A stretch of DNA of 64,000 nt from an uncultured Methanolinea sp. (GCA_964598545.1 CAZRCH010000003.1:1145-65144), one strand, 5' to 3'; shown: positions 6,587 through 43,554, numbered from the stretch's first letter. Notes: generated from the letters alone by a model not told the origin. Numbers and translations are program-made.

Positions 6587-6743
6587 GGGTGATAATCCGT
6601 GGCTCCTGAACGATCGGGAAAAATTCACTCCCCATTACACGAATGGATATCGGGGGAGGAGCAGGGTGACTGGCAAATCCCCCCTTCCATAGGGCTCCTG
6701 ACCGGGTATCTTAAAGTCGGATCCTTCATATTCATATGGTGAT

Positions 6744-6929
6744 ATGGTGTCCAGACCGGCAATCGATGCGGTATTCGAGGCGATGTTCATCCTCACCGAC
6801 ATACGGGTGATGCTTCGGGAGACCGCCCCAGCACATGTCCTCTCGCCTGCCCAGCGGGAGGAGACGCTCGCACTGCTGGACGGCCTCGACGAGAGAGTGA
6901 AGACCCTGCGCCGGGAGCTCCTGCCATGA
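6744..6929 (+). CDS. small predicted-helical protein translationally coupled to SepCysS (possible stand-alone SepCysSn/SepCysE-N-like helper)
   Basis: 61-aa ORF whose TGA overlaps the SepCysS ATG (ATGA at 6926-6929). The sequence is Leu/Glu/Arg-rich and predicted helical. Confidence 0.45.
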   Translation: MVSRPAIDAVFEAMFILTDIRVMLRETAPAHVLSPAQREETLALLDGLDERVKTLRRELLP

Positions 6930-8104
6930 AGTGCGCAGGCGAGATCGATGTCAGGGACCTGGACGAGTCATACATCAACATCGACCCCATCCAGGTGGGA
7001 GGGCGTCTTACCCCTGAAGCCATGAAAGCGGTCATCGCGTACGGCGACGGGTACTCGGTCTGCGATCATTGCCGGAAACCCTTCCGGCTCGACTTTATCA
7101 AGACACCCCCTGTAGATGTCTTTTTCAGGGACCTTGCGGCATTCCTGCACATGGATGTCGCACGGGTGGTCCCCGGTGCCCGCCGCGGGTTCCAGGCAGT
7201 GGCGGACACCTGCGTCCAGAAGGGGGACCCCGTACTGATCACGGCCCTCTCCCATTACACCGAAGTGCTGGCCGTCGAGGCAAGGGGGGGTCTCATCAGG
7301 GAGATACCCAAGACTCCTGAAAACCTCATCACTCCCGATGCGGCGGCCGAGAAGATAGAGTCTGTAAAGAAGGAGACGGGAAAGGCACCCTCCCTCCTCT
7401 TCATCGACCAGGTCGACTACCAGTACGGAAACCTCCACCCTGTCAGGGAGATCACAAAAGTCGCCCACCAGTACGACATCCCGGTCCTCGTCAACGGGGC
7501 CTACACGGTCGGGATCATGGATGTGAACGGGAGGGATCTCGGCGCCGATTTCGTCGTGGGATCAGGGCACAAGAGCATGGCGTCCCCGGCGCCTTCCGGC
7601 GTTCTGGCCGCCACCTCCGAGTGGTCGAACCGGGTCTTTCGCACCACCACGGTAAAGACAGACGTGACGTCCCGGACGTTTGGGATCAAGGAGGTGGAGA
7701 TGATGGGCTGCACACTCATGGGAGTCACGCTTGTCGGGATGATGGCATCGTTTCCACGGGTGCGTGAGCGGGTGAAGCGCTGGGAAGAGGAGCTGGCGAA
7801 CGGTGCCCTGGTCGTCGATGCATTGAAACGAATAGAGGGGACAGAGATCCGGAGCGAATATCCCCGCAAGCATACCCTCTCCCGAGTGGATACGACGAAA
7901 TCCTTCGACATGGCGGCAAAGAACCACAAGAAACGCGGATATTTTCTCTCAAGCGCTCTCAGGGCCAGGGGCATTGCCGGCACAATACCTGGTGCGACAA
8001 AGGTGTGGAAGTTCAACACCTACGGCATGACGCGTGCGCAGGCCGGGCATGTCGCCTCCTCGCTCATCGAGATTGCAGCAGAGAACGGGCTCTCTGTCGG
8101 GTGA
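6926..8104 (+). CDS. pscS: O-phospho-L-seryl-tRNA:Cys-tRNA synthase (SepCysS)
   Basis: Full-length resemblance to archaeal SepCysS as I recall it: INIDPIQVGGRLT, GDGYSVCDHC, LVNGAYTVG, PLP-lysine context GSGHKSMA, MASFPRVRERVKRWEEE. Confidence 0.9.
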   Translation: MKCAGEIDVRDLDESYINIDPIQVGGRLTPEAMKAVIAYGDGYSVCDHCRKPFRLDFIKTPPVDVFFRDLAAFLHMDVARVVPGARRGFQAVADTCVQKGDPVLITALSHYTEVLAVEARGGLIREIPKTPENLITPDAAAEKIESVKKETGKAPSLLFIDQVDYQYGNLHPVREITKVAHQYDIPVLVNGAYTVGIMDVNGRDLGADFVVGSGHKSMASPAPSGVLAATSEWSNRVFRTTTVKTDVTSRTFGIKEVEMMGCTLMGVTLVGMMASFPRVRERVKRWEEELANGALVVDALKRIEGTEIRSEYPRKHTLSRVDTTKSFDMAAKNHKKRGYFLSSALRARGIAGTIPGATKVWKFNTYGMTRAQAGHVASSLIEIAAENGLSVG

Positions 8105-9613: not shown

Positions 9614-10999
9614 ATGCAGAGAGTCATCCTCTTCATCGCGGTTATCAGCAGTTTTATTACCCCTTTCGATGGGTCCGCGGTCAATATCGCACTCCCCGCA
9701 ATAGGCGATGAGTTCTCACTTGATGCGGTGACTCTCTCCTGGATCACCACATCATACCTCCTTGCCATTGCCATTCTCCTTGTGCCGTTTGGAAAACTTG
9801 CCGACATGAAGGGGAGGAAGCGGCTGTTCCTCATCGGGATCAGCACATTCTCCGCAGCATCGGTCCTGTTGCCATTCTCGGCCGACGCCGGGATGTTAAT
9901 TGGTCTGCGCCTCCTCCAGGGAGCCGGATGCGCGATGATATTCGGGACGAGTCTTGCTATCCTTTCCGCGGCCTATCCCCCGGGGGAGCGCGGAAAAGTG
10001 CTCGGGATCACCATTGCCGCAGTATACCTGGGGCTCTCGCTCGGCCCGTTTCTCGGGGGGCTCATGACCGAGAGGCTCGGGTGGAGGAGCATCTTCCTCG
10101 TGAATGCCCCGCTCGGCATCCTCTGTATCCTCTTTACCATCTGGAAACTCCCGCTTGAATGGAGGGATGAACCAGGCGAGCAGTTCGATATCGCGGGTTC
10201 GTTTCTCTGGGCGGTCTCTCTCATCGCCACTATCTACGGCTTGTCGATCCTTCCCTCACTTGCGGGGACGGCCCTGATATGCACGGGAATCGTACTCCTT
10301 GTTGCTTTTGGATTCTTCGAACTCCGCGTACCATCGCCCGTCATCAACATGCAGCTGTTCCTTGGGAACCGGGTGTTTGCCTTCTCGAACTTCGCCGCCC
10401 TGATCAGCTACAGCGCAACCTACGCGGTCACCTTCCTCCTCTCACTCTACCTCCAGGTCGCCAAGGGGTTCACCGCAGAGTATGCCGGGCTGATCCTCGT
10501 CGCCCAGCCCGCGATGCAGGCGCTCTTCTCCCCCCTGGCAGGAAAACTCTCTGACAAAATCGATCCTGGATACGTGGCCTCTGCAGGGATGGCATTAACG
10601 GTTGCGGGACTCTTTCTCCTCACGTTCCTCGATGCAGGCTCCTCTATCCCCTTTATCCTGGGCTGCCTTCTCTTTCTCGGGCTGGGTTTTGGGTTCTTCT
10701 CGTCACCGAACACCAATGCCATTCTCGGTTCGGTGGACCGGCGGTCCTACGGTGTCGCATCAGGCATGGTGGGCACAATGCGTCTTCTCGGGCAAATGCT
10801 CTCGATGGGGCTTGCAATGACCATCTTTGCGATCAATATCGGAAAGGTGGAGATCGGTGCGGGAAATATCCCTCAATTCATCGAAAGCATCCACGTCGCG
10901 TTCCTGCTCTTCTTTGCTCTCTGCGTCATTGGGCTTGCCTTCTCCCTGGTCCGGGGGAATAGTCGGGGCAAGGGGAACGAGAAACCCCGTGATCCCTGA
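9614..10999 (+). CDS. MFS transporter, 14-TMS drug:H+ antiporter (EmrB/QacA-like)
   Basis: 461 aa and highly hydrophobic. MFS loop motif GKLADMKGRKRLF between TM2 and TM3. Confidence 0.8.
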   Translation: MQRVILFIAVISSFITPFDGSAVNIALPAIGDEFSLDAVTLSWITTSYLLAIAILLVPFGKLADMKGRKRLFLIGISTFSAASVLLPFSADAGMLIGLRLLQGAGCAMIFGTSLAILSAAYPPGERGKVLGITIAAVYLGLSLGPFLGGLMTERLGWRSIFLVNAPLGILCILFTIWKLPLEWRDEPGEQFDIAGSFLWAVSLIATIYGLSILPSLAGTALICTGIVLLVAFGFFELRVPSPVINMQLFLGNRVFAFSNFAALISYSATYAVTFLLSLYLQVAKGFTAEYAGLILVAQPAMQALFSPLAGKLSDKIDPGYVASAGMALTVAGLFLLTFLDAGSSIPFILGCLLFLGLGFGFFSSPNTNAILGSVDRRSYGVASGMVGTMRLLGQMLSMGLAMTIFAINIGKVEIGAGNIPQFIESIHVAFLLFFALCVIGLAFSLVRGNSRGKGNEKPRDP

Positions 11000-29301: not shown

Positions 29302-31137
29302 ATGTTGGACCGCATTAGGAGATTTATCCATACCATGACGACCAGGTTCATTCCTGGCAGGGGGGAGGAAGAGGCAGCCACTCGTTACTCCTGGGAAGAT
29401 TTCCTGTTTTTTATTCCGCTATTCAGGCCATATCTTGGCGCAATCGCCGTTATTCTCTTTTTAACAGTTATTCGTTCATTCTGCATGGCGTTCATCCCGT
29501 ATTCATCAAAGATCCTTATAGATTCGGTCTTTGGGAACAATCCGATCCAGATTCCGGCTTCCCTCGGGGGGATTTTGAGCCAGCCGGTGCATCAGGTCAT
29601 CACCTTCATGGGAAGTTCACTTTTTTCGTTTATTCTTGTAGTCATTATCGTAGGATTGGCCATCGGTGTTTTTGATATCATCCGCACTTACCTGACCATC
29701 AGGGTCAGGGAAGGTTTCATCATATCACTCCGAACCTCCCTTTACACCCACGTATTGTTTGTTCCCATCCGGTTCTTTCGATCCAAAAAGACCGGGGCAA
29801 TCATCTCCCGGATCTCATCGGACACCGCATACCTCCAGGGGATGGTCATCACACAGTTTCCACAGATCACCTCATCGGTGTTTACCCTCCTGTTCACCAT
29901 AGGGGCGATGATCCTCATCTCGCCAAATCTTACACTTGTATTCGCAGGTGTTTTTCCGATTATGGCGGTGATCAACTACCTCATTTCAGGAAAGATACGT
30001 GCATTGACGTATATGGAACTTGAAAGGCTCTCAGAGATCTTTGCCAGGATGGGTGAAGCAATTGCGGGGATAGAGATGGTAAAGAGCCACGGGGCAGAAC
30101 AGAGAGAAGCAGAAGAGATAGCAACCCAGGTCCGTGACCTGGGAGACACCAGGATCGGCAACAGCCTTCTCAGCGCCCTGGGGGAAAAGAGCCGTGCCCT
30201 CTTTGCAGGTGCAGCCTTTCTTATCATTCTCTGGATTGGTGGCAATCAGGTATTGAGCGGTATCATGTCTCTTGGGGATTTCGTGGCATTTATCGCCTTT
30301 CTTCCCATTGTCGGTGCTGCATTGCAATCCCTCCTCTCTTTCCCACTTCAGATGCAGGGAAGCATCGCAGCTGCAGGAAGGATAAAAGACCTCTTCTCAA
30401 TCCTGAAGGAATACGACCCTGCCGACCGGTCCGAGAGACCGAAGGCCGCTATCAGGGGAGAGATTATCTTTGAAAACGTCTCTTTCTCCTATGATCAGCG
30501 GAGAACTGTCCTTCACAACATTTCGTTGCACGTCGGGCAAGGAGAGATTATCGGGATCATCGGTGAGACTGGCGGAGGCAAGACGACGCTCATACAATTG
30601 ATCCTGAGGTTTTATCCTCCCACAAAAGGAAGAATCCTCCTTGACGGGATCGATATTTCGAAAATCCGGCATGACCACATCAGGATGCTGATCTCATTTA
30701 TCTCCCAGGATCTATTCTTGTTTCATGATACCATCAGGAATAATATACGCTATAGTATCCCCCACGCTACTGACGACGAGATCATTGCCGCCGCACAAGC
30801 TGCTCAACTCCATGAGACCATCCAGACGTTTCCTGAAGGGTACGACACTATTGTCGGAGAACGGGGCCTCCAGCTTTCGGCTGGTCAGCGGCAGCGGATC
30901 TCTCTCGCCCGTGCATTTCTCCGCAATGCACCGATCATGATTATGGACGAACCCAGTTCGTCGCTGGATCCGGAAACCGAATACCGGCTCCTTTCTATAC
31001 TCGCTGAAAAAGCACGCGGAAAAACCGTGATTATCATCACGCACCGCGAAAGTATCCTCCCGGTCTGTGATCGGGTTCTTCAGCTGGTCGATGGGGAACT
31101 TGTTGAAAGAAAGAACCATCACCGAAGAATTATCTGA
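29302..31137 (+). CDS. ABC exporter, fused transmembrane + ATPase domains (type I exporter), no N-terminal peptidase domain
   Basis: Six-TM N-terminal half. Walker A GETGGGKTT, signature LSAGQRQR, Walker B IMIMDEPSSSLD, H-loop ITHR. Confidence 0.88.
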   Translation: MLDRIRRFIHTMTTRFIPGRGEEEAATRYSWEDFLFFIPLFRPYLGAIAVILFLTVIRSFCMAFIPYSSKILIDSVFGNNPIQIPASLGGILSQPVHQVITFMGSSLFSFILVVIIVGLAIGVFDIIRTYLTIRVREGFIISLRTSLYTHVLFVPIRFFRSKKTGAIISRISSDTAYLQGMVITQFPQITSSVFTLLFTIGAMILISPNLTLVFAGVFPIMAVINYLISGKIRALTYMELERLSEIFARMGEAIAGIEMVKSHGAEQREAEEIATQVRDLGDTRIGNSLLSALGEKSRALFAGAAFLIILWIGGNQVLSGIMSLGDFVAFIAFLPIVGAALQSLLSFPLQMQGSIAAAGRIKDLFSILKEYDPADRSERPKAAIRGEIIFENVSFSYDQRRTVLHNISLHVGQGEIIGIIGETGGGKTTLIQLILRFYPPTKGRILLDGIDISKIRHDHIRMLISFISQDLFLFHDTIRNNIRYSIPHATDDEIIAAAQAAQLHETIQTFPEGYDTIVGERGLQLSAGQRQRISLARAFLRNAPIMIMDEPSSSLDPETEYRLLSILAEKARGKTVIIITHRESILPVCDRVLQLVDGELVERKNHHRRII

Positions 31138-31446
31138 TTTGAGCCCCCATGTCATCAGCGATGCATTCCGGGATAGGCTTTTTCTGTTACCTGTTCATCA
31201 TTGAAACCCGGGGGCTCGTCATATCTCTCTTTCGTGCAGGGAACCTACCTATGGGAAAACGCAATGTATCTTTCTCTCCTATCCCTGACAAACCGATTCG
31301 GATCGATGGAAAATTCAGACTGTTATCGAACCATCCGAAGAATAAATCAGGATTATTTGATAGGATCAAATCAAAAGAGGATACTCTCTGCGATTCACAG
31401 ATGTTCAAAAAACCCCTCTTATTTGTACTGAAGGTGTTGCCAGCAC

Positions 31447-34047
31447 ATGCCTCCCAATGACCTGACAACGTCCGGACTGGTCGAAAAATGGTCAGCAAGA
31501 AGTGCGGATTCTCCTGCAATTATCGATACATCGGGCATGGTAATCTCATATCGGGATCTTTCCGGAATCATCTCCTCGTGGAAACAGGCACTTATACGCC
31601 AGGGCATCGGTAACGGTTCCCGGGTCGCTGTTGTCCTCCCCAATGGATCGGACATGGCTACAACATTCCTCGGGATTACTGCTGTTGCGACCTGTGCTCC
31701 ATTAAACCCATATTATTCACGTGACGAGTTCTTCTTTTACTTACAGGACTCGGGGTGCGTTGGATTACTGGTCGGCGACAGCTGTCCGATCGCAGCAGAA
31801 GAGGCGGCACAGGATCTGGGAATCCCATGCTACAAGCTCCGACCAATCAAAGAGGTGCTCTCCGGCGTATCCCCGGTTTATGGAGAGGTACACTCACATA
31901 ATCCCATGATACCACCGGTCGTGCCGGATTCACACCCTGAAGACTCCGCCATTATCCTTCATACTTCCGGGACCACAGGGAAGCCTAAAAGGGTGCCGCT
32001 CAGGCAGGATCGCATCTGCAGGAATGCTGCCGCCATTGCAGGAACCCTGCACCTCACTCCTGCAGACCGGTGTCTCAACCTGATGCCGCTCTTTCACGTA
32101 CACGGACTGGTAGGCTGCCTCCTCGCAACCATCTATTCCGGGGGAGCGATCATCACCACCCCGGGCTTTCAGCCGGATAAAATTGCAGGCTGGTTGCGCG
32201 ACCTCGAACCCACCTGGCTTTCCGCAGTCCCTGCAATCCACCATTCACTCCTGCGGGTTGTCGGGAATTATGAAGAAATCACACACCATCTGCGGTTTAT
32301 CCGATCATGTTCGGCCCCGCTCCCCCCATCTCTGCTTCAGGATATGGAGGAGCGATTTAAAGTCCCTGTAATCGAAGCATACGGGATGACGGAGGCATCC
32401 CATCAGATCGCGTCGAACCCACTTCCCCCTGCCTCCCACAAACCCGGTTCGGTCGGTATACCTACCGGCTACACCATCAGGATCCAGGACCGGCGTGGCC
32501 AGGAATGCGATCCCGGCATGCGGGGAGAGGTCTGGATCTGCGGAGAGAATCTCTTCTCCGGATACGAGGATAATCCGGATGCGAATTCCGAAGATTTCAT
32601 GAGCGGTTTCTTCCGCACAGGAGATGAGGGATATGTCGATCCTGAGGGGTATCTGTTTCTCACCGGGCGATTAAAGGAATTGATCAACAAGGGGGGGGAG
32701 AAAGTCGCTCCCCGTGAGATAGAAGAAGTATTCCTGCACTACGCCGGCGTTGACCAGGCTGTCGCATTTGGCATCCCGCACAAAGAACTCGGGGAGGATA
32801 TCGGGCTCATCCTCGTTCCTTCCCCTGGGTACGAACTGGCAATAGCGAATCTCAAGCAGCATGCCCTCCAGCACCTTGCTCATTGGAAAGTCCCCTCAAA
32901 GATTAAAATCATGGACGAGGTTCCAAAAGGCCCGACAGGAAAGGTCAGGAGACGCGATCTTGCAGCGCTCCTATTGGATTTGGACAGGCACCCTGAACCA
33001 TTACCTCGGCATCGCGGGAATCACCCTTGCGAGTGGGAATCCCCTTCCGAACTTGAAGAACAGATCCAGAAAATCTGGGCGGATACACTCCAGAGTGGGC
33101 CTATAGGCCTTGATGAAGACTTCTTTTCTCTCGGGGGATACTCGCTCACTGCCCTGGGAATCACCACAGAACTCGAGCGATCATTTGCGGTCGAGCTCGC
33201 TCCCTCCATCCTCTTCAGTGCGCCTACAATCAGGGAGCTCGCCGAAGTGATAGCAAGGGAAAGATCCGGGGAGCCACTCCCGACTTTGGTCCCGTTCCGG
33301 AAAAAAGGAGACCGGGTCCCCCTCTTTCTCGTCCCGCCAGGGCATGGAAACGCATTTTTCTACCGGGAATTTGCCGCGCTCCTTGGATCGGATCAACCCT
33401 TCTACTCATTCTCCCGGTATCCGATGCCCACAGCTCCCGGCTCTATCGAGGGTATCGCAGCCAGGAATATCGATGAGATCCTTCGGATCAATCCTGAGGG
33501 ACCGTTCCTGGTCGGTGGTTATTGCTTTGGTGCTGTCGTCGCCCTTGAGATGGCTCACCGGTTGCAGGAACGGGGATTGGAAGTGCGGGGCCTGATGATT
33601 ATCGATCCCGACCAACTTCCAAATGGCCCTGATTGGACTTGGGAGCACCCGCAGCAGACCCGGAAAGAGTTCCTTCTATGGCTTATCCGGGGTGGCCCAC
33701 GGCGTTGGTATTGGTTTGTGCCCATTTACATCTCCCGTAAGATCCGCCCACCGCGATTCACTCCTGAAGATCAGAAGCAATTGGAGATCCTCCTCGCCAA
33801 CACCAGAATGCTCCGGGATTACCGCGCCAGGCCTTATAAGGGTCGTGCGATAGTGTTCCACCAGGAGAAGGCTGATAAAACAATGAGAAAACGGTGGGGG
33901 ATCATCCTTGGGGAGTCAGCAAAGTCCATAATTATTCCGGGCACGAAGCACAACGAAGTGCTGGATCGAGGAGGCAGGCGGATAGCGGACCAAATGAGAG
34001 ATTTTTCGAATCTCACAGATAATTATGACCAGATATCTAATCCGTAG
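31447..34047 (+). CDS. stand-alone adenylation - thiolation (carrier) - thioesterase protein (NRPS-like A-T-TE)
   Basis: ANL motifs LHTSGTTGKPKRV, LFHVHGL, EAYGMTEASH, FRTGDEGY...GRLKELINKGGEKV, PKGPTGKVRR. Carrier motif FFSLGGYSLTAL (Ser566, nt 33142-33144). Alpha/beta-hydrolase TE with GGYCFGAVVA (Cys693, nt 33523-33525) and a C-terminal GTKHNEV. Confidence 0.85.
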   Translation: MPPNDLTTSGLVEKWSARSADSPAIIDTSGMVISYRDLSGIISSWKQALIRQGIGNGSRVAVVLPNGSDMATTFLGITAVATCAPLNPYYSRDEFFFYLQDSGCVGLLVGDSCPIAAEEAAQDLGIPCYKLRPIKEVLSGVSPVYGEVHSHNPMIPPVVPDSHPEDSAIILHTSGTTGKPKRVPLRQDRICRNAAAIAGTLHLTPADRCLNLMPLFHVHGLVGCLLATIYSGGAIITTPGFQPDKIAGWLRDLEPTWLSAVPAIHHSLLRVVGNYEEITHHLRFIRSCSAPLPPSLLQDMEERFKVPVIEAYGMTEASHQIASNPLPPASHKPGSVGIPTGYTIRIQDRRGQECDPGMRGEVWICGENLFSGYEDNPDANSEDFMSGFFRTGDEGYVDPEGYLFLTGRLKELINKGGEKVAPREIEEVFLHYAGVDQAVAFGIPHKELGEDIGLILVPSPGYELAIANLKQHALQHLAHWKVPSKIKIMDEVPKGPTGKVRRRDLAALLLDLDRHPEPLPRHRGNHPCEWESPSELEEQIQKIWADTLQSGPIGLDEDFFSLGGYSLTALGITTELERSFAVELAPSILFSAPTIRELAEVIARERSGEPLPTLVPFRKKGDRVPLFLVPPGHGNAFFYREFAALLGSDQPFYSFSRYPMPTAPGSIEGIAARNIDEILRINPEGPFLVGGYCFGAVVALEMAHRLQERGLEVRGLMIIDPDQLPNGPDWTWEHPQQTRKEFLLWLIRGGPRRWYWFVPIYISRKIRPPRFTPEDQKQLEILLANTRMLRDYRARPYKGRAIVFHQEKADKTMRKRWGIILGESAKSIIIPGTKHNEVLDRGGRRIADQMRDFSNLTDNYDQISNP

Positions 34048-34671: not shown

Positions 34672-35145
34672 TTATTTTTGGATTTTTCCGTTCAAATGAA
34701 GGCTCAGCTTATCCCCGATGGCTATCCCATTCCTCTCGCAGTATCCCCCGTTCACTTCGATCAAATACGCAGAAACGGAATCTGACGTAATCATCTCTTT
34801 GCTCATGGGGATAAGGTCCCTTTTAATATCGACAACTGAAAGATCCGGTGAGATTATTATCATATCCAGTGGGATCAGAGTATTCTTCATCCAGAACCCA
34901 ATCTTGTGAGGTTTTTCAAATACAAAGATCATTCCGGAGTGTTCGGGAAGGCTCTTCTGGAACATCAGGCCTTTCGTCTTTTTTTGGGGTGTATCTGCAA
35001 TTTTTAGATTGATTCTTCGGTGATTTCCATGCTGGCTGGAAATGATGGCATAAGGTTGTGTTCGAAAATACCTTCTGTATATCAGAAATAGGCCTATGCT
35101 AATGCCTAGGCATATGAATATGGCGATATCCAAATCCATGAACAA
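34672..35145 (-). CDS. DUF192 family protein with an N-terminal membrane anchor
   Basis: TM helix (IAIFICLGISIGLFLIY), then ADTPQKKTKGLMFQKSLPEHSGMIFVF...IGFWMKNTLIPLDMIIIS, the DUF192 core pattern. Confidence 0.7.
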   Translation of the reverse strand: MFMDLDIAIFICLGISIGLFLIYRRYFRTQPYAIISSQHGNHRRINLKIADTPQKKTKGLMFQKSLPEHSGMIFVFEKPHKIGFWMKNTLIPLDMIIISPDLSVVDIKRDLIPMSKEMITSDSVSAYLIEVNGGYCERNGIAIGDKLSLHLNGKIQK

Positions 35146-35250: not shown

Positions 35251-35421
35251 ATGGCATACGAGAAACCCAGACTGATTGATCTGAGTGCGCATCCTGAAAC
35301 AGGACATGGTCAGATGAGGGAATGCAAATCAGGGAGTGGTGCAGCTGGACCCTGTATTGGCGGTTCAGGCCCCGGTGTTGATATTTGTACAGCGGGGCAG
35401 GGCGGATTCAGGCCACCTTAA
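35251..35421 (+). CDS. candidate RiPP precursor peptide, 56 aa, Gly/Cys-rich core with three CxxGxG units
   Basis: My translation: MAYEKPRLIDLSAHPETGHGQMRECKSGSGAAGPCIGGSGPGVDICTAGQGGFRPP*. The ORF is below the 60-aa cutoff of the supplied track. It has a charged N-terminal 'leader' and a Gly-rich C-terminal half with Cys25/35/46. It lies inside the rSAM/PqqD cluster, flanked by AT-rich spacers. Confidence 0.6.
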   Translation: MAYEKPRLIDLSAHPETGHGQMRECKSGSGAAGPCIGGSGPGVDICTAGQGGFRPP

Positions 35422-35726: not shown

Positions 35727-36971
35727 ATGGTCACACGACTGATTGATCAAAATAATAAATATATATCGTTCGATCAACCGGAGGTTCCTGGCTTTCTGTT
35801 TACTTCATGCCCCCCACTTCTTTCCCTTATTCAACTATTGAATCGGAATAGATTGCATAATGAACCATTTCCTAATGATTCATGGAATAATATCGTTCAT
35901 TTTGCACAAAAAATGCATTTGACACCCCTTCTCTATTCTACACTTAAATCTAAAGAAAATGTTATTCCTCCTCCTGAAATTTTCATGCAATTGAAATCGT
36001 TCTATCAAGCAAATGCGGCCCGAAATCTTTTTTTCACTCATAGCCTGCTTGTTTTGTTAACCGAATTAGGGAAAAAAAACATACAGGCTATACCATTGAA
36101 AGGGATATATCTTGCCAATTGCGTGTATGATAATCCCTCTGCAAGACAGATGAACGACCTGGACATCATGGTCCGTTGGGAGGATGTTCCAGCTGCGTGG
36201 GGTATCGTTGAGAACCTGGGATTCAAAGCTTCCGACACGTTCCATCTTGATGATACCTATCGTCGGATAAAGCACCATGCGCCTGATTTTCTTCATCCAT
36301 CCGGAACCAGAGCGGAAATTCACTGGAATATTCTCTCTCCGAATGGTGGCAATAGAGGGAAAAGTCTGGAAGACATGATCTGGCTTCACACTATGCCAGG
36401 AGAGATCTTGGGAAAAAAAGCACTTTTTTTAAGACCGGAACTATCCATACTTCATTCTACGATTCATCTGACATTCCTTCACATGTTTAACTCCGGGATC
36501 CGCGATATTTATGATATCGATAATATTCACAGGAAATTCCGTGGTACTATTGACTGGGAATTTCTCATGGCTTTTTCGAAGAGGTTCAGGTTTGAACGGG
36601 CACTACACCTTGTTCTTGCTCTTACCGATATCATCACAGGCTCAGATATTTCAGGTGAATTGAATAAAAATGGCCTTCATCTTGAAATTCCCGATAGCAT
36701 TCTCATTTTTGCGGTGAATGAGATTATACGGGGAGGTTCAAATGACAGCCTTTCAATAAAGTTATTGACATCAAATCCAGGCCCTTTTGTAACAACACGT
36801 GCATTGGTGAACTGGTTTTTCCCCGGTCGTGACGAGATAAGAGACAAATATCATGTACCTCCGGGTCCTTTTGGGGTGTATCGTTGTTATCCAATCCTCA
36901 ATTACTATCGAGTTACCCATTTTGACAAGATAGTACGCGATTTTTCCTTTGGCAGATGGATGAACGGGTGA
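35727..36971 (+). CDS. uncharacterised nucleotidyltransferase family protein (PF14907/NTP_transf_5-like)
   Basis: LKGIYLANCVYDNPSARQMNDLDIMV matches the family hallmark (KG..L...Y.....R...D.D.lV). Followed by the typical HH..D / EIHW region. 414 aa. Confidence 0.7.
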   Translation: MVTRLIDQNNKYISFDQPEVPGFLFTSCPPLLSLIQLLNRNRLHNEPFPNDSWNNIVHFAQKMHLTPLLYSTLKSKENVIPPPEIFMQLKSFYQANAARNLFFTHSLLVLLTELGKKNIQAIPLKGIYLANCVYDNPSARQMNDLDIMVRWEDVPAAWGIVENLGFKASDTFHLDDTYRRIKHHAPDFLHPSGTRAEIHWNILSPNGGNRGKSLEDMIWLHTMPGEILGKKALFLRPELSILHSTIHLTFLHMFNSGIRDIYDIDNIHRKFRGTIDWEFLMAFSKRFRFERALHLVLALTDIITGSDISGELNKNGLHLEIPDSILIFAVNEIIRGGSNDSLSIKLLTSNPGPFVTTRALVNWFFPGRDEIRDKYHVPPGPFGVYRCYPILNYYRVTHFDKIVRDFSFGRWMNG

Positions 36972-37064
36972 CATACAGCTCTTTAAATGAAAGAAGAAAA
37001 AAATATTACCATCAATTTGCTTAAGATATTTCATTCATTTTTTGATCTGTCCTCTCACTCATCA

Positions 37065-38222
37065 TCACCCGAAAAGCCTTGTTCCGGGGAACAGCCCGGC
37101 CTCTGCAGCATCCTCACAGAACTTATGCCCTGCGAGGAGATCGTGATATACATAATAATTCCCTGCAATACACTGACCGAGGCATATGTTCTTCATGAGG
37201 CATCGCGCACAGATACCCTTCAGGCCGTCGGGAAGGTGTTCCCGCAAATCGTTGAGTTCACGGGAATTTTCCCAGATGTCCCTGATATTATCATCTTTTG
37301 CGTGACCGAAACAGAGCTCGGGGACATTCTTTCCTATCCCGCAAAGGGCAAACGTTCCATCGTGAAGCACTCCGAGGATCGTGAAGATACCGCATCCACC
37401 ACAGGCATTGTCCAAATCGAACATTGCCGAGAGCGGAATAAAAGCCTTCGGGATGTTGGTCAACAGGGGAATCCCAATCTCTTGGCGGAGCTCTTTTATG
37501 ATCCAGTTCGACAATGCGATTTGCTCCTGCACCGTCACCGTCTCTCCCTTCTGCTCCATCACCTCCCCCCGCACCGTGGGGGTGATAAAATTGTATTTCA
37601 CCGATGAGGCACCCAGATCGCGGGCATACCGGGCAAGGCTCTCGATTTCATCCCCGTTCCGGCCGGCAACTGCCATGATCACCTGTGGATGGATCCCGGT
37701 CTCGACGAGTGTCCTGACTCCCTGGGACGCCCTCTCGAAGGAGCCGGAGACCCCCCTCATCCACTCGTGATTCTGTTTCATGCCATCGATACTGATCGAG
37801 ATAAAATGGCCCTTGCAGGACTTGATGAGATCCGCGATGTGGGGTGTCATGGCAACCCCGTTGGATTCAATGGAGAGCGCAAGCCCTTCGTCCCTGATAA
37901 AACGAAGGATCGGAATAATGTCCGGGTGGATCAAAGGCTCTCCCCCGGTCAGTTTCACTGTAGTAAGCCCAATCTCTTTTGCCTCCGTCACAATTTTTTT
38001 GAAGAGCGCGAAGGGAAGCGCCTTTTTTGAAGTATCGGCATTCAGGAAGTCGGGGGCAATCCAGCAGTGCCGGCATGCCATGTTGCAGTCCCCTGTGAGG
38101 TAAAAATAGAGAGTCCGGAGTGGAGGTATGATCTTTTTTTCTTCCGGACTCGTGAGAGCATCACTTGCGTCCATACTCATCAGAACAATTAAAGGGCAGG
38201 ATGCCCCCCACGTATATTCCAT
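37065..38222 (-). CDS. radical SAM enzyme with a C-terminal SPASM domain (PqqE-like peptide maturase), copy 2
   Basis: CxxxCxxC = CNMACRHC. GGEPL. SPASM: CGGCG...GTFALCG and CARCLMKNICLGQC (CxxCx5Cx3C). Confidence 0.88.
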   Translation of the reverse strand: MEYTWGASCPLIVLMSMDASDALTSPEEKKIIPPLRTLYFYLTGDCNMACRHCWIAPDFLNADTSKKALPFALFKKIVTEAKEIGLTTVKLTGGEPLIHPDIIPILRFIRDEGLALSIESNGVAMTPHIADLIKSCKGHFISISIDGMKQNHEWMRGVSGSFERASQGVRTLVETGIHPQVIMAVAGRNGDEIESLARYARDLGASSVKYNFITPTVRGEVMEQKGETVTVQEQIALSNWIIKELRQEIGIPLLTNIPKAFIPLSAMFDLDNACGGCGIFTILGVLHDGTFALCGIGKNVPELCFGHAKDDNIRDIWENSRELNDLREHLPDGLKGICARCLMKNICLGQCIAGNYYVYHDLLAGHKFCEDAAEAGLFPGTRLFG

Positions 38223-38268
38223 CTCATCGTATCTGTCATCCGATACAGAGAGTATCCGTCCATGATCT

Positions 38269-39393
38269 TCATTTCTGCGATTCCTTTGGCAGGTTGACGA
38301 TTCGCCCTCCGTGTTCCAGGAACCGTTTCAGGCAGCCGTCTGGGCTTGGGGCAAATACATTCCCGGTTCGGGTATAGCTGCTTGCCGGGCAGTTCCCCGT
38401 GCATGCCATCTGCCATGGACAATCGGCACATTCGGGAAACGTGGAGAGCGGGATTGTATAGCGGTTTCTTAAACGGTTCAATTCAGGATGATCCTGCCAA
38501 ATTCTAAGTAAACGGTCACGATTAATCCGACCCAGTTCGATGTGGGCGAGCATGTTGCAGGGTACAATCACTCCGTCCGGGCGGACAGCGAGCTTGCCCC
38601 ACATGCACCCGCACCCTGCCAGGTAGCCCCTTCCAGGGATTGCCCGCCCTTCGGCTCGTGCCTTCTCCATCTCCTGGAAAGTTCTGCCCAGTGCCAGGGG
38701 ACCGTCTGCAGCACTTATCCGCCCGTGATAGTGTTCTGCCAGGAGAAGGGATCTCATCATCGCATCGCAAAACTCGGCCGGCGTCAACCCGACTTCATCG
38801 GGATTCTCCCGGGCAACTCCAAGGTAACAGGTGCTGTTGGTGGAAATGGAGGGCATGCCAATCTCATCGAGAAGGAGGTGGACAGTATTTTCAAGATCAT
38901 CAAGGTTGTACCGGTGAATGGTAATCCTTGACGTGATGGGAACGTTCGCATCCTGGAGCGTTCGAACTCCCCTCATCGCTGCTGCAAAGGAACCTGGGCC
39001 TCTCAGGGAATCATGCGTCTCGGAGCAGGACCCATCAACCGAGATCTGCACGTAGTCACAGCGGCCGGTAGACGCAATAAATTCAGCGTGTTCGGGACGG
39101 ATGAGCCCCCCGTTTGAGAGGATCGAGAACCGCATGCGGTTTTCCACGACCGCTTCGATGATATCCAGTAAATCATCCCTGATGAATGGTTCCCCGCCTC
39201 CAATACAGACAGACATCACCGCGCAGTCACCGAGTTCCCTGCAAAACGCAGCCCATTCATCAGTGGGGAGTTCAGTTTTGGTATCAGTCGGACTGGTCCT
39301 CTGATAACAATATTTACATTTCAGATTGCATCGAGAGGTGATGTCCAGGTCCATGCTTTTTGGAGACTTCATCAGCTTTCTCGATTCAACCAT
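38269..39393 (-). CDS. radical SAM enzyme with a C-terminal SPASM domain (PqqE-like peptide maturase), copy 1
   Basis: CxxxCxxC = CNLKCKYC. GGGEPF. SPASM: GCGCMWGKLAVRPDGVIVPC and CADCPWQMACTGNC. Confidence 0.88.
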   Translation of the reverse strand: MVESRKLMKSPKSMDLDITSRCNLKCKYCYQRTSPTDTKTELPTDEWAAFCRELGDCAVMSVCIGGGEPFIRDDLLDIIEAVVENRMRFSILSNGGLIRPEHAEFIASTGRCDYVQISVDGSCSETHDSLRGPGSFAAAMRGVRTLQDANVPITSRITIHRYNLDDLENTVHLLLDEIGMPSISTNSTCYLGVARENPDEVGLTPAEFCDAMMRSLLLAEHYHGRISAADGPLALGRTFQEMEKARAEGRAIPGRGYLAGCGCMWGKLAVRPDGVIVPCNMLAHIELGRINRDRLLRIWQDHPELNRLRNRYTIPLSTFPECADCPWQMACTGNCPASSYTRTGNVFAPSPDGCLKRFLEHGGRIVNLPKESQK

Positions 39394-39660: not shown

Positions 39661-40518
39661 TTAAGACAGGTACTCCCAGAATGATCCATCAAGGGCAGCT
39701 CGAAGGATACCACAGGATAAATGTGATACCGCATCACAGCTGCGATGGAAGAGTCCCATATGCCAATCAGCATAGGTATCGTCATTATTTTCTTTTCGAA
39801 GGCAGATGCTGCTCACCTGGACTGCAGACTGATAGAGAAGGGATGCGGCCTGGCCTTTCCCAATGGGGACAGCCTGGTCTTGTTCCCCATGTTCAAGGAA
39901 CCAGATCCCTGTCACCGGAACGGCATACCCTACGTCCCATCTCCGGTCAGACAAATCCCGGATAAGAAAATCACTCCATGTGGGAAGAGGGTGAGCATAA
40001 TAGATTCCTCCGGCCGGTACAAGGAGCACGGCATCATCACACAAGGCATGCCATGGCGGAGGGACACGGCTTGCACATGTGGATTTCCCTGTTGCCCCGG
40101 GAGCTGCGATCATTATTGCCTCCCCATCCCGCTCGAGAAGTGCTGCATGGACGGGAATGCCACCAAACGGCCAGATCGCGAGGTAGAGGGTCTGGATGGC
40201 GAGCATCATCCTCACGATATCCTCTTTTGGGTCCCCGCGTTCGAAGGGAATAATCTCAGTGACGAGATCGGTTCCATCTGTTTTTGCATAGCTGTTCATC
40301 CAGCGCGATCGTGAAGTTACCCAGCATCCACGATGAAATAATGGTGCACCCGAATCCTGGAAACAAAACCTCCAGGAAGGACCAATTCTCCCCCTTTCTA
40401 CTTCACGAAGCATCAGGATGTGTGCAAAGTCCTGCAACCAGTCCTCAAGATCGGCGGAAGCTTCCAATGCCCATCGCTGACCGTTCCGAATGACGAGTTC
40501 GTAGGATTCTCTGGTCAT
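39661..40518 (-). CDS. P-loop HPr-kinase-related protein (SynChlorMet ScmC-like)
   Basis: The Walker A-like loop IAAPGATGKSTCA in the C-terminal half, followed by LCDD..., resembles HprK C-terminal-domain-related proteins found in RiPP clusters. Confidence 0.6.
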   Translation of the reverse strand: MTRESYELVIRNGQRWALEASADLEDWLQDFAHILMLREVERGRIGPSWRFCFQDSGAPLFHRGCWVTSRSRWMNSYAKTDGTDLVTEIIPFERGDPKEDIVRMMLAIQTLYLAIWPFGGIPVHAALLERDGEAIMIAAPGATGKSTCASRVPPPWHALCDDAVLLVPAGGIYYAHPLPTWSDFLIRDLSDRRWDVGYAVPVTGIWFLEHGEQDQAVPIGKGQAASLLYQSAVQVSSICLRKENNDDTYADWHMGLFHRSCDAVSHLSCGILRAALDGSFWEYLS

Positions 40519-40690: not shown

Positions 40691-41389
40691 TCAATTACTT
40701 CGTTCACCTCCTGGATAGGTTGGCTGATTCTCATCGATGACTGAGTGTTGCGTCCCTTTGAATGCGCTATTATCACATTCCGCCGGACAATCCGGGAGAT
40801 GCCCCCGATCAATGAACAGCCGGTAGGGTGGGAGAATTGTCCAATCCCGGTCCTTTTCTCCTTTCCACCCGACAAGTCTCCTTCCTAAGTACACCTGGAG
40901 ATCGTATCCTTCATGTGTCTTTACGAGGACCAACCGCTGCTGATACCGCTCCGGAACCATACGGCAAATGAATTTTATCTGTGATATTTTCCAGTAAGGC
41001 TTCGCAAAAAAATGTTCAAACCGTGTGAGTAGTTTTACCCGTTGTTGTGCATATTGGTGATGCCTCATGCCAGCTGATCCCATAGAAACAACCATAGGCC
41101 GATCCTCACGGATACCTCCGGTCACCACTCCCATGATTTCAGAGTGCATGACAGGATGCATGTCATTGAATAGCATGTTGTCACCCCGTGTGCAATACGA
41201 TCCATCAGGGTATTTGATGACGACACGATGAATGATGAGACAACCGGTATTTGCAGGATCACGAAAAATAATCACATCGCCAGGAACAGGTAAACGTTCA
41301 GATACAGGCACCCACTCCAGAATATCATCCTGGAGCAACGCAGGATTCATGCTGGATCCCACATATCTGATCTGCCGGTTACTCTTCAT
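40691..41389 (-). CDS. Sec11/archaeal-type S26 signal-peptidase-like protease lacking a membrane anchor, with a ~130-aa C-terminal extension
   Basis: Motif order GSSMNP ... GDVIIF ... IIHRVV ... TRGDN..FND mirrors archaeal/eukaryal SPase I (SGSMEP / GD / HRV / TKGDNN..D). No hydrophobic N-terminal helix (starts MKSNRQIRYVGSSM). Confidence 0.65.
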   Translation of the reverse strand: MKSNRQIRYVGSSMNPALLQDDILEWVPVSERLPVPGDVIIFRDPANTGCLIIHRVVIKYPDGSYCTRGDNMLFNDMHPVMHSEIMGVVTGGIREDRPMVVSMGSAGMRHHQYAQQRVKLLTRFEHFFAKPYWKISQIKFICRMVPERYQQRLVLVKTHEGYDLQVYLGRRLVGWKGEKDRDWTILPPYRLFIDRGHLPDCPAECDNSAFKGTQHSVIDENQPTYPGGERSN

Positions 41390-41458: not shown

Positions 41459-41752
41459 ATGGAATCAAGCAAAACCGCGTCGGGAAGGAGTGTCCTTCGA
41501 AAGAAGGATCAGATAGTACTCAGGGAGGAATTTGATGACTGGGCTCTCCTCTTTGATCCGGATACTGGCATGGTCTGCGGTGTCAATCCTGTCGGCGTGC
41601 AGGCCTGGATGATGATTGACGGGAAACGTACGGTTCAGGATATCAGCAGGATGATCCGGGATTCCTATCCCGATGCACCCGATTCAGTGATTGATGATAT
41701 TACAGATTTTATGAATGAAATAAATGAAAAAGGATATGTCACTTTCATTTGA
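41459..41752 (+). CDS. PqqD-family protein (RiPP recognition element)
   Basis: 97 aa. LFDPDTGMVCGVNPVGVQAWMMIDGKRTVQDISRMI...DDITDFMNEINEKGYV is the canonical PqqD layout. Confidence 0.85.
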   Translation: MESSKTASGRSVLRKKDQIVLREEFDDWALLFDPDTGMVCGVNPVGVQAWMMIDGKRTVQDISRMIRDSYPDAPDSVIDDITDFMNEINEKGYVTFI

Positions 41753-42006: not shown

Positions 42007-42600
42007 ATGAGGGAATATCCAGATGGCCCTGGTGATGAGATGGAATTATATCCTTCCAGGGGTCTGGCCAGGATTTTTCCTAAAGTTGTCCTGCATCGTC
42101 TCAGGTCTTACATCCTTGCATCTTACCTCTCCTGCAATCCTGGGAAAGTACGGCTTTCATACGGACAATATGGACAACCCATTATTGACACTCCTTCCTG
42201 TCCATATACCTTTTCAACGTCTTATTCAGATAAAAATTGGATGCTGGTTATCAGTCACGAAAACCTTGTTGGAGCCGATATTGAGCAAATCAAGGAAAGA
42301 CCAGGACTCAATGCAATTGCACACCGCCTATTTCATGCAGAGGAATTGAGCCATATCAGATTGCTTCCTCGCATTGAACAGATACAGGCATTCTTTCACC
42401 TCTGGACACTCAAAGAAGCATACCTGAAAGGAACCGGGAAAGGGTGGTCGGGCTGGGAATCCCTCCCGGATATGACTCGATGCATCTCCGTGGATTCAAC
42501 AGGTTCTTCGTGGACATGCCCCCGTGTCGAAAAACATCATGCATTCCTGATGACCAGCTCAATGATGTCCAGGGCACTTGTATACGGCACCTCGCGGTAG
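42007..42600 (+). CDS. Sfp-type 4'-phosphopantetheinyl transferase (5' end problematic)
   Basis: LVGADIE (GxDxE) and WTLKEAYLKGTGKG (W..KEA..K). RLRSYILASYL..NPGKVRLSYGQYGQP aligns with HetI-like PPTases. The conserved N-terminal IHLW motif is encoded in frame upstream of ATG 42007 (41917-42006), where no ATG/GTG/TTG exists. Confidence 0.7.
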   Translation: MREYPDGPGDEMELYPSRGLARIFPKVVLHRLRSYILASYLSCNPGKVRLSYGQYGQPIIDTPSCPYTFSTSYSDKNWMLVISHENLVGADIEQIKERPGLNAIAHRLFHAEELSHIRLLPRIEQIQAFFHLWTLKEAYLKGTGKGWSGWESLPDMTRCISVDSTGSSWTCPRVEKHHAFLMTSSMMSRALVYGTSR

Positions 42601-42849: not shown

Positions 42850-43554
42850 TCAGAGATCCCGGATCATCAGGGTTATTCCTCCGGGAATCCCGGCAAAGAA
42901 TGCCTGACCGCTGACAATGAAGTCATCATAGGTAACATATGCCGCACCAGAGAACCCGCATTGTTCACAAGCGCGTCGCGAACCCGGGCCGGTACAGTCC
43001 GCAATTACCCTGGAATACCCCCGGTGCAATGCCAGGGAGAGGATTCTGCTGACCAGGCGGATGGCAATTCCCCTGCCGCGTTCGGTCTCCCTCACCCCGA
43101 GCTGGAAGAGGTGGAGCACCGTCCCGGGTTCCGGATATGCCAGATCCGGGCAGCGTGATTCCACCTCTCCGAGGATCTCCATGCTCTCGGAAAAAAAGGA
43201 GAGAAGCGTGGAGATACCGGGAGAAACCGAACTCCAGTCGGTGGCAAGGTCGCTGCAGAGCGCGAACCCGACCACGTCTCCCGTATCGCATTCGGCCGCG
43301 ATGACGCTCATGCCCTGATCCGCACAGAAATGGAGGTATTCCCGTGCAAAGGGCGAAAACTTGGCAGGATCGATCCCATGGCGACGGGTCATCGGTTCGT
43401 CGTTGAGGAAGACATGGGCATAAAGTGCTGCAGTCTCATCTGCAGTCTCATGGGTGAGTGGTAAAAGGCGTTCTCTCTCTTCATGAACCAATCTTTCGGG
43501 CGGGACCCCGACAACCCGGCCCTTTCCCGAACCTTTCATGGCACAATCACGCAC
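42850..43554 (-). CDS. GNAT-family N-acetyltransferase
   Basis: Acetyl-CoA motif A RGRGIAIRLVSRIL. Overlaps the 3' end of the upstream AI-2E gene, so probably in an operon with it. An alternative start lies at 43539. Confidence 0.7.
   Translation of the reverse strand: MRDCAMKGSGKGRVVGVPPERLVHEERERLLPLTHETADETAALYAHVFLNDEPMTRRHGIDPAKFSPFAREYLHFCADQGMSVIAAECDTGDVVGFALCSDLATDWSSVSPGISTLLSFFSESMEILGEVESRCPDLAYPEPGTVLHLFQLGVRETERGRGIAIRLVSRILSLALHRGYSRVIADCTGPGSRRACEQCGFSGAAYVTYDDFIVSGQAFFAGIPGGITLMIRDL

Follow-up and report, generated by a model that had tools for sequence, protein, structure and literature searches.

Enzymes built from a single adenylation (A), carrier (T) and thioesterase (TE) domain, termed non-ribosomal peptide synthetase-like (NRPS-like), are known from fungi and bacteria, TdiA, AtrA and RalA being examples that make quinones and furanones. 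To our knowledge, phosphopantetheine carrier proteins are almost never used by archaea. The methanogen Methanobrevibacter ruminantium possesses a pair of NRPS genes and a 4'-phosphopantetheinyl transferase (PPTase), which are thought to have been acquired from bacteria (PMC2812497). Oxalate is bound by AtAAE3, an oxalyl-coenzyme A (CoA) synthetase (OCS), in a pocket formed by V215, H216, C288, S289, A313, M314, H319 and K500, with S289 and H319 conserved solely in oxalyl-CoA synthetases, and the OCS of grass pea favours oxalate about 10^4-fold over malonate and succinate (PMC8905533). The present study characterised a gene (31447–34047, + strand; 866 aa and an ATG start according to the open reading frame (ORF) listing and translation) in a 64,000-nucleotide stretch of DNA from an uncultured Methanolinea sp. 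(GCA_964598545.1 CAZRCH010000003.1:1145-65144), referred to throughout as the window. The gene is predicted to encode an A-T-TE protein with an OCS-type A domain and lies beside a SynChlorMet (SCM) cassette, a peptide cassette with radical S-adenosylmethionine (SAM) genes. With a probability of roughly 45%, we regard the protein as an accessory module of that cassette for the loading and transfer of a small, oxalate-like acid, the favoured acceptor being the peptide derived from the precursor ScmA.

Domains and predicted substrate of the A-T-TE protein

The stand-alone A-T-TE architecture proposed in the original prediction is supported by both the Pfam domain set and the predicted fold. Four Pfam domains scored above their curated cut-offs, namely AMP-binding (aa 13–373; PF00501, 224 bits, E 3e-66), AMP-binding_C (aa 424–499; PF13193, 46 bits), PP-binding (aa 538–602; PF00550, 49.8 bits, E 4e-13) and Thioesterase (aa 625–720; PF00975, 74 bits, E 2e-20), while an Abhydrolase_6 match carried the thioesterase region on to aa 848. 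An AlphaFold2 model of the full-length protein, built on 26 homologues (mean pLDDT 79.7), had AtAAE3 as its top Foldseek match in the PDB (5IE3; TM-score 0.89 on the target, 39% identity), followed by Pcs60, and over about 890 columns it matched the A-T-TE parts of AB3403, EntF, SrfA-C and ObiF1. No match to the condensation domain PF00668 was found by Pfam in the protein or its neighbours, and because this domain is absent the protein is classified from its sequence as NRPS-like and not as an NRPS proper; it is predicted to be a working, self-contained carrier-protein enzyme. Every motif quoted earlier was located in the translation, comprising LFHVHGL (215–221), LRFIRSCSAPLP (282–293), EAYGMTEASH (310–319), SNPLPP..HKPGSVG (323–337), GRLKELINKGGEKV (407–420) and GGYS (563–566).

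The A domain spans aa 1–512 (31447–32982, +) and can be assigned to the ANL superfamily from its signatures TSGTTGKPK (173–181), YGMTE (312–316), FRTGD (389–393), GRLKE (407–411) and K499. Its best matches among PDB sequences were AtAAE3 (5ie0, E 1e-105), grass-pea LsOCS (6qjz, 2e-103) and Pcs60 (8aff, 5e-103), followed by the malonyl-CoA synthetase MatB (about 1e-55) and NRPS A domains (about 1e-51); in bits, it scored about 177 against NRPS A domains versus 357 against OCS. By HMMER and by our own alignment, the counterparts of the AtAAE3 pocket residues are V218, H219, C288, S289, G313, M314, H319 and K499, to which H217 is added in the pocket as annotated here. Seven of the eight positions are identical, S289, H319 and K499 being retained and A313G being the sole change. 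The hinge lysine of the OCS type (K410) is also retained, and the domain aligns with AtAAE3 over about 510 columns without a large insertion. The pattern H-V/I-H, C/S/A-S, G-M, H, K recurred in 36 of 38 first-A-domain sequences of prokaryotic relatives, including NRPS starter modules. Sequence matches and pocket residues thus agree on the OCS-like character proposed at the outset, with NRPS A domains far weaker, and the substrate suggested by the pocket is likely a small polar acid, oxalate first, although it may be a slightly different C2–C3 oxo or hydroxy acid.

A long fatty acid, which the original prediction had also entertained as a substrate, is disfavoured by this closed, OCS-type pocket. 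A FadD-type A domain would in that case load an acid with a medium or long chain, and the peptide would thereby be lipidated, in keeping with the names of the best NCBIfam models ('FadD7 family fatty acid--CoA ligase', 363 bits; 'long-chain-fatty-acid--CoA ligase', 310 bits) and with lipolanthines, goadvionins and selidamides, ribosomally synthesised and post-translationally modified peptides (RiPPs) acylated with carrier-bound fatty acids. Both scores nevertheless fall far below their cut-offs (650 and 476, respectively), and the fatty-acid names are not to be trusted. With no large insertion relative to AtAAE3 either, identity as a FadD-type enzyme or fatty acyl-AMP ligase was rejected. Moreover, the pocket equals that of oxalate-specific enzymes, with their roughly 10^4-fold discrimination against malonate and succinate (PMC8905533), and lipidation of the peptide is considered quite improbable.

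A word-indexed search returned 7,999 homologues at E <= 1e-20. Among the 120 homologues listed, 119 had the same four Pfam domains and one was A-A-T-C; a close clade of 11 sequences showed 54–100% identity, the remainder about 36–44%, and the few distant homologues with a source name were bacterial (Binatia, a cyanobacterium). When the A domain alone was searched with HMMER against 1.84 billion cluster representatives, the best 150 matches, judging by length, comprised A-T-TE proteins (about 830–900 aa), A-T proteins (613–640 aa) and multi-domain proteins, plus one 407-aa fragment, and none of these 150 had the length of a free ligase (about 520 aa). Seven of them were scanned with Pfam and all were carrier-linked (A-T, A-T-C, A-T-C-C, A-T-C-A-T, A-A-T-C and A-A-T-TE). 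By length and by these seven scans, the nearest A-domain relatives appear to be carrier-linked, and the domain is predicted to belong to a large set that loads carriers rather than CoA. A neighbour-joining tree recovered the archaeal clade as monophyletic (200/200 bootstraps), the distant homologue P0013 as its sister (171/200), and the plant and yeast OCS together (186/200). Since the branching of carrier-linked prokaryotic A domains relative to eukaryotic OCS received 8/200 bootstraps, no claim is made on which A-domain type is ancestral. 'AMP-binding protein' and 'oxalate--CoA ligase' (the latter by JGI) are labels that automated pipelines already give to proteins of this kind, so the sequence family is not new. 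A scan of GTDB genomes with the single A-T-TE protein found nothing, the species of the window apparently not being among GTDB representatives with an A-T-TE, and a metagenome scan with a T-TE alignment returned almost exclusively canonical NRPS T-TE ends, the sole relevant locus being L051 (related loci are numbered with the prefix L).

The OCS-type pocket, the JGI label 'oxalate--CoA ligase' carried by several homologues and the occurrence of one bacterial homologue alone among unrelated genes would also suit a role in oxalate housekeeping or detoxification, unrelated to any peptide, in which the T-TE part passes the oxalyl group to CoA or hydrolyses it. Hydrolysis would, however, amount to a futile ATPase cycle, neither an oxalyl-CoA decarboxylase nor a formyl-CoA transferase was found in the window region examined, and NRPS assembly lines (A-T-C-A-T) begin with this type of A domain. 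A dedicated PPTase and a conserved cassette context argue for biosynthesis as well, and housekeeping is therefore judged improbable.

The carrier (T or peptidyl carrier protein) domain extends over aa 535–607 (33049–33267, +; Pfam PP-binding, 49.8 bits). The modifiable serine expected of such a domain is predicted to be Ser566 (codon 33142–33144, motif LGGYSL), which is present and invariant in the alignment of 26 homologues. The model predicts a helical bundle (helices 535–548, 566–580, 588–591 and 595–607), and a four-helix bundle with the serine starting helix 2 places the domain, as far as sequence and model can tell, among NRPS and polyketide synthase (PKS) carriers.

The TE domain covers aa 612–855 (33280–34011, +; Pfam Thioesterase and Abhydrolase_6), with a predicted triad of Cys693 (33523–33525), Asp720 (33604–33606) and His835 (33949–33951). 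In the model, Cys693 follows strand 687–692, Asp720 follows strand 713–719 and His835 lies between strand 826–830 and helix 838–855, a layout that corresponds to the canonical thioesterase topology. Pfam and the modelled topology agree with the type-I thioesterase named in the original prediction, except that the nucleophile motif is GYCFG, with Cys693, and not GxSxG. Cysteine nucleophiles are less common, the solved NRPS cases named being ObiF, SulM and AB3403, of which AB3403 keeps its Asp after strand beta6 (PMC11298585). The closest PDB match of the T-TE region was the Cys-TE of AB3403 from Acinetobacter (E 6e-24), where the motif reads GWCFG. The cysteine is present in each of the 11 sequences of the archaeal clade within the alignment of 26, and a rough regular-expression count over the first 120 homologues gave 86 Cys, 21 Ser and 13 unscored. 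The subfamily motif DPDQLPNGPDW (aa 720–730) stands directly after the Asp; a shorter lid is common to the archaeal clade and P0013, as is the form DPxxxxNGP[GD]W, which among the 384 proteins compared occurs otherwise only in the C-terminal fragment P0329. A homologue search with a T-TE profile yielded short T-TE fragments and unrelated T-TE proteins, with no new SCM-linked member except P0329.

Linkage with the SynChlorMet cassette

The neighbours of the A-T-TE gene are identified from family matches as a bona fide SCM cassette (TIGR04248–04252), ScmC, ScmE and ScmF scoring above the NCBIfam cut-offs and ScmD and ScmA below them. Upstream lies an ABC exporter of 611 aa with fused membrane and ATPase domains (29302–31137, +; Pfam ABC_membrane E 1e-42, ABC_tran E 2e-32), the first gene of a predicted ABC/A-T-TE transcription unit. 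Downstream, the 56-aa precursor ScmA (35251–35421, +; NCBIfam SCM_precur_ScmA, E 5e-4, 20 bits against a cut-off of 35) has the leader YEKPRLIDL followed by a Cys/Gly/Ser-rich core. On the opposite strand stand two radical SAM/SPASM maturases, ScmF (37065–38222, -; TIGR04251, 449 bits, cut-off 400) and ScmE (38269–39393, -; TIGR04250, 505 bits, cut-off 400), and ScmC, a P-loop protein related to HprK kinases (39661–40518, -; TIGR04249, 196 bits, cut-off 125) in which the GKST P-loop is invariant. The PqqD-like peptide-binding protein ScmD (41459–41752, +; TIGR04248, 91.8 bits, cut-off 100) is followed directly, on the same strand, by an intact Sfp-type PPTase of 197 aa (42007–42600, +; Pfam ACPS 57 bits; best NCBIfam matches HetI and AcpT). 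The flanks described originally, an exporter upstream and two radical SAM/SPASM genes (37065–39393, -) plus an Sfp-type PPTase downstream, were thus all found. A literature search on 'SynChlorMet' retrieved no paper and no description of the cassette product.

ScmA-like genes with the leader YEKPxLxDL and a Cys/Gly/Ser-rich core were detected by jackhmmer, run over small ORFs, beside most SCM cassettes. Their cores contain repeated Cys-x-x-Gly-Ser/Thr-like units, some bacterial precursors exceed 100 aa, and three paralogues occur in L004.

The gene order of the window recurs in L002 and in the Methanolinea loci L005–L008, which share one conserved order. The same exporter gene precedes the A-T-TE gene in L001, L002, L004–L008, L051 and L131, with 88% amino acid identity to the window exporter in L006. 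Locus L004, with an A-T-TE protein of 66% identity, is rearranged (ABC, BKACE (a beta-keto-acid cleavage enzyme), A-T-TE, AsnB-like, three scmA, ScmF, ScmE, ScmC, NTP_transf_5, S26-like, ScmD), with the parts still adjacent; its AsnB-type asparagine synthase (L004 6863–8842, -; TIGR01536, 360 bits) also gave a sub-threshold match to lasso-peptide cyclases. In L001, scmA lies on the strand of the A-T-TE gene and begins 119 bp downstream of it. P0013 shares no more than 40% identity overall with the window protein (47% in the A domain, 30% in T-TE), and its locus comprises a 279-aa ORF, possibly BKACE, the A-T-TE gene and a 52-aa ORF, a candidate ScmA, and on the opposite strand PPTase, radical SAM, radical SAM/SPASM and PqqD genes in one tight string, continuing with a 222-aa ORF, NTP_transf_5, ScmC, a 74-aa ORF and ABC. 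In summary, the A-T-TE gene accompanies the cassette at the P0013 locus and in every Methanoregulaceae locus that was fetched via the A-T-TE and reaches far enough. In these two divergent lineages the PPTase stands beside the cassette genes or in one string with them, and the TE subfamily motif tracks cassette association.

The ScmA-derived peptide is favoured as acceptor because the exporter shares the transcription unit with the A-T-TE gene, scmA is the next gene on the same strand and the PPTase follows ScmD. In the scheme suggested by gene content, the Sfp-type PPTase of the cluster would convert Ser566 to its phosphopantetheine form. The A domain would adenylate a very small polar acid, most likely oxalate, else a C2–C3 2-oxo or 2-hydroxy acid, and attach it as a thioester to the T domain of the same protein, not to CoA. 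The acyl group would then move to Cys693 of the TE and be released by transfer to a nucleophile other than water, an activity known from the TE of Pks13; the putative acceptor would be an amine or hydroxyl on the peptide that ScmC, ScmD, ScmE and ScmF mature from ScmA, and the resulting small-acyl (oxalyl-type) peptide would be exported by the ABC transporter.

Several observations weigh against this role. The comparison covered 36 ScmC loci from other GTDB species genomes (Desulfobacterota, Syntrophales, Chlorobiaceae, Acidobacteriota, Omnitrophota, Methanotrichaceae, Methanomicrobiales, Methanospirillum, one Methanoregulaceae fragment and others), with DNA of up to 10 kb on each side and several contigs of only 2–9 kb, and in the DNA examined an OCS-type A domain, T-TE, PPTase or DUF192 was present at none of the 36. 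ScmE and ScmF occur at about two thirds of them, mostly accompanied by ScmD and an S26-like gene and in many cases by NTP_transf_5 and a fused ABC exporter. A close archaeal cassette, L132–L134 (83% identity to the window in ScmE, 85% in ScmF, 75% in ScmD and 66% in ScmC), likewise lacks A-T-TE, ABC, NTP_transf_5 and PPTase within 10 kb, and is either a minimal cassette or a broken-up one. Three other bacterial A-T-TE homologues lie in a PKS/NRPS cluster, beside a PPTase only, or alone. Between exporter and A-T-TE gene, most archaeal relatives carry BKACE, which points to small-molecule chemistry. In L005–L008 the PPTase (about 6795–7420, -) has an in-frame TGA at codon 150, where the window has TGG (Trp150); the TGA falls after the VGxD and WxxKEAxxK motifs in four of four loci, all of one conserved arrangement, and this PPTase could be truncated but possibly active, a pseudogene or subject to recoding. 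The ScmA cores of A-T-TE-linked cassettes share no conserved acceptor residue (e.g., Lys), and we know of no TE with transferase activity on a RiPP. A313G is universal in the prokaryotic proteins examined, and the substrate therefore need not be oxalate itself. Finally, the literature search found no paper on oxalyl groups with a carrier protein and an adenylation domain, and no experiment on any family member.

The co-occurrence with the radical SAM cassette envisaged in the original prediction is seen in the Methanoregulaceae loci fetched via the A-T-TE and at P0013, and is not seen in the DNA examined at the 36 other ScmC loci and at L132–L134. Given this absence, A-T-TE and PPTase are to be seen as an optional module on one SCM sub-lineage, not as a core component. 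The core of L132–L134 (ScmC at 10001–10855) consists of ScmD, the S26-like gene, ScmC, ScmE, ScmF and an scmA-like ORF, edged in L132 by IS1595 and DDE transposases. In a Methanospirillum metagenome-assembled genome (L013, 10001–10537), a ScmC homologue (60% identity) is detectable over its C-terminal two thirds only, with no other SCM gene within 10 kb, and is possibly a stray fragment.

The BKACE gene (PF05853) lies between exporter and A-T-TE in four archaeal contigs (L001 9095–9949; L004 2993–3838; L051 about 384–1220; L131 2358–3245), its best NCBIfam matches being Kce and 3-oxoadipate:acetyl-CoA acetyltransferase, both below cut-off. Enzymes of this family convert a beta-keto acid and acetyl-CoA into acetoacetate and a shortened acyl-CoA, and their substrates may be very small, malonate semialdehyde among them (PMC11961710). 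Speculatively, and by analogy, BKACE acting on oxaloacetate would give oxalyl-CoA, and it is a possibility that the enzyme supplies or converts a C2 thioester. No BKACE remnant was detected in the window by tblastn; the gene was lost from the window lineage and the A-T-TE gene was kept under selection.

These loci invite the alternative that a self-contained ABC/(BKACE)/A-T-TE operon activates a small acid, possibly jointly with BKACE as an enzyme acting on CoA esters, and exports a separate product, and that it stands beside the SCM genes through a shared acquired island. ABC, BKACE and A-T-TE are indeed tight and co-directional in L001, L004, L051 and L131, the A-T-TE family occurs in bacteria without SCM genes, SCM cassettes, including the close one, exist without A-T-TE, and G+C is low over the 28–44 kb block (0.40–0.53, with the minimum at 34–36 kb, versus 0.55–0.60 in the flanks). 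Against an independent operon, however, stand the position of the PPTase in the window, on the far side of the cassette and right after ScmD, and its place in one string with two radical SAM genes at the P0013 locus. In the window, in L001 and probably at P0013, the gene that follows A-T-TE on its strand is scmA. The adjacency has outlasted both the L004 rearrangement and the 60% divergence of P0013, and A-T-TE remains under purifying selection in a lineage that lost BKACE. Fused ABC exporters accompany many SCM cassettes that lack A-T-TE, so the exporter is more likely the cassette's own. An independent small-molecule pathway is accordingly possible but on balance unlikely, and the A-T-TE protein is preferably read as a module that serves the SCM cassette.

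Selection, remaining genes and host

Relative to the sister locus L006, dN/dS was 0.18 for the A, 0.13 for the T and 0.27 for the TE domain, compared with 0.10 for the ABC exporter and 0.13 for ScmE, and the whole A-T-TE gene gave 0.16 against L004. The gene is thus maintained by purifying selection. A 103-aa ORF (31149–31460, +) that overlaps its start, reported earlier between exporter and A-T-TE, proved spurious: dN/dS was 1.06, differences were spread 19/16/18 over the codon positions, and no Pfam or NCBIfam family was matched. The region is conserved as DNA (84% identity with L002). The ORF was rejected as a small partner protein and likewise as a BKACE remnant, with a BLASTP E of 0.03 against BKACE and nothing found by tblastn of BKACE on the window. 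The 309-bp spacer (31138–31446) is accordingly annotated as non-coding, at the position that BKACE occupies in related loci. An Rfam scan of the window gave zero matches.

The loss of BKACE from the window lineage, the stop codon in the PPTase of the sister loci and the insertion sequence elements beside the reduced cassette in L132 could be taken to mean that the A-T-TE gene arrived by horizontal transfer, no longer has a function and is now decaying. The 866-codon frame is nevertheless intact with all catalytic residues present, the PPTase of the window is intact, and dN/dS remains at 0.13–0.27 across three domains and two comparisons, versus 1.06 for the spurious ORF, which leaves decay hardly plausible.

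Among the remaining genes, a DUF192 protein (COG1430; 34672–35145, -; 157 aa, Pfam E 3e-29) adjoins the A-T-TE gene in L002, L003 and L005–L008. An NTP_transf_5 nucleotidyltransferase-like protein (35727–36971, +; 414 aa, PF14907 E 1e-49), found also in many bacterial SCM loci, is followed by a 206-aa ORF (36987–37607, +), which is antisense to ScmF, has no family match and is probably spurious. A signal-peptidase-I-like S26 protein (40691–41389, -; NCBIfam sigpep_I_arch E 9e-11, below cut-off), a candidate leader peptidase, is encoded next to ScmC, as in most SCM loci. Directly after the PPTase, a GNAT acetyltransferase (42850–43554, -; PF00583, 35 bits) lies on a segment of about 970 bp that neither the collinear sister loci nor any other locus fetched possesses. 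As an insertion confined to the window lineage it was rejected as a required acyl-transfer enzyme, since the system cannot require a gene that all other loci lack; it may still matter in the window lineage, because GNATs are the acyl-transfer enzymes of known acylated RiPPs.

The archaeal origin claimed at the outset is corroborated by the archaeal-type genes of the window, which include the Mre11-Rad50-HerA set, SepCysS (Sep-tRNA:Cys-tRNA synthase), a FilR1-type methanogenesis regulator, Taw2/TYW2 and a tungsten-type aldehyde:ferredoxin oxidoreductase (AFOR), and by the names attached to SepCysS and AFOR: at 90% identity or more, both cluster with proteins that bear the names 'Methanoregulaceae archaeon PtaB.Bin152' and 'Methanolinea sp.'. 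Because of these cluster names, the host is identified as a Methanolinea-like methanogen (Methanoregulaceae) from anaerobic digesters, an assignment based on sequence. The DNA-end-resection cluster (381–8104) contains a Mre11-like phosphoesterase, a Rad50-like SMC ATPase, a 343-aa ORF and a HerA helicase, and is followed by SepCysS. The low G+C of the 28–44 kb block is consistent with a horizontally acquired island, and the A-T-TE module probably came from bacteria, where the same architecture is abundant.

Significance and comparison with known systems

Three aspects are new, namely the recognition of a carrier-loading OCS-type group, a Cys-TE subfamily tied to SCM cassettes, and the presence of such an enzyme, together with a dedicated PPTase, in a methanogen. 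This methanogen lineage is common in anaerobic digesters, and it keeps a complete minimal carrier system (PPTase plus A-T-TE) under purifying selection inside a radical SAM peptide cluster. The A-T-TE protein is small and soluble-looking, and the identity of its substrate would annotate thousands of proteins. If the acyl group ends on the ScmA peptide, the system would offer a new RiPP tailoring route and a first handle on the SynChlorMet system; if it does not, the locus still provides a clean example of bacterial-to-archaeal transfer of secondary-metabolic parts. The more specific idea that, in these methanogens, the Cys thioesterase takes an oxalyl (or other C2–C3 oxo-acid) group from the carrier and caps the SCM peptide with it is rather unlikely. 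Were it true, it would represent the first thioesterase-mediated, carrier-dependent acylation of a ribosomal peptide and the first oxalate-loading NRPS-like enzyme, and the large prokaryotic group of OCS-type A domains would define, for non-ribosomal peptides and hybrids, an 'oxalyl starter unit' that has gone unrecognised.

M. ruminantium is likewise a methanogen with carrier-dependent synthetases and a 4'-phosphopantetheinyl transferase, but its NRPSs are multi-module, amino-acid enzymes in a member of the Methanobacteriales, whereas the window enzyme is a single OCS-type module, in the Methanomicrobiales, tied to a radical SAM peptide cassette. Neither A-T-TE nor PPTase belongs to the SCM cassette by its definition, and most cassettes are without both.

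For the A domain, AAE3/Pcs60 (EC 6.2.1.8; PDB 5IE0–5IE3, 6QJZ, 8AFF) provides the best sequence and fold match, with the same pocket including Ser289 and His319 and the same hinge lysine. AAE3/Pcs60 enzymes are, however, free proteins of about 515 aa that make oxalyl-CoA and have Ala313, whereas the prokaryotic relatives examined have Gly, and the window A domain is fused to its own carrier and thioesterase. From this fusion, the acceptor would be the tethered pantetheine, not CoA, and the domain, although OCS-like in its predicted first half-reaction, would fall outside the CoA-ligase enzyme class as defined. The OCS-type NRPS starter modules (A-T-C-A-T...) share the same pocket (H-I/V-H, C/S-S, G-M, H, K) fused to a T domain, the implication being that A domains of this type provide an acyl cap when an amide is formed; we know of no characterised member. 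In these modules the condensation domain transfers onto an aminoacyl thioester, whereas the window enzyme has a TE alone and its presumed acceptor is a ribosomal peptide.

The Cys thioesterases of AB3403 (4ZXH), ObiF1 (6N8E) and SulM offer the nearest parallel for release, the T-TE region being most similar to AB3403, with its Asp after strand beta6. These are C-A-T-TE or larger assembly lines that act on aminoacyl or peptidyl chains, in contrast to the window enzyme, which has no condensation domain, and the product of AB3403 is itself poorly defined. TdiA, AtrA and RalA have the same single A-T-TE module without a condensation domain, activate 2-oxo acids in place of amino acids and form their product through the TE. 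They differ in using NRPS-type A domains and aryl-pyruvates, two units of which are dimerised by the TE, whereas the window enzyme combines a tiny, OCS-type pocket and a Cys TE with a RiPP-type cluster. Carrier-dependent acylation of RiPPs is established for lipolanthines, goadvionins and selidamides, and the proposed role follows the same logic, with a carrier-made acyl group moved to a ribosomal peptide; known RiPP acylations involve GNAT enzymes and fatty or polyketide chains, whereas here a thioesterase would transfer a small acid.

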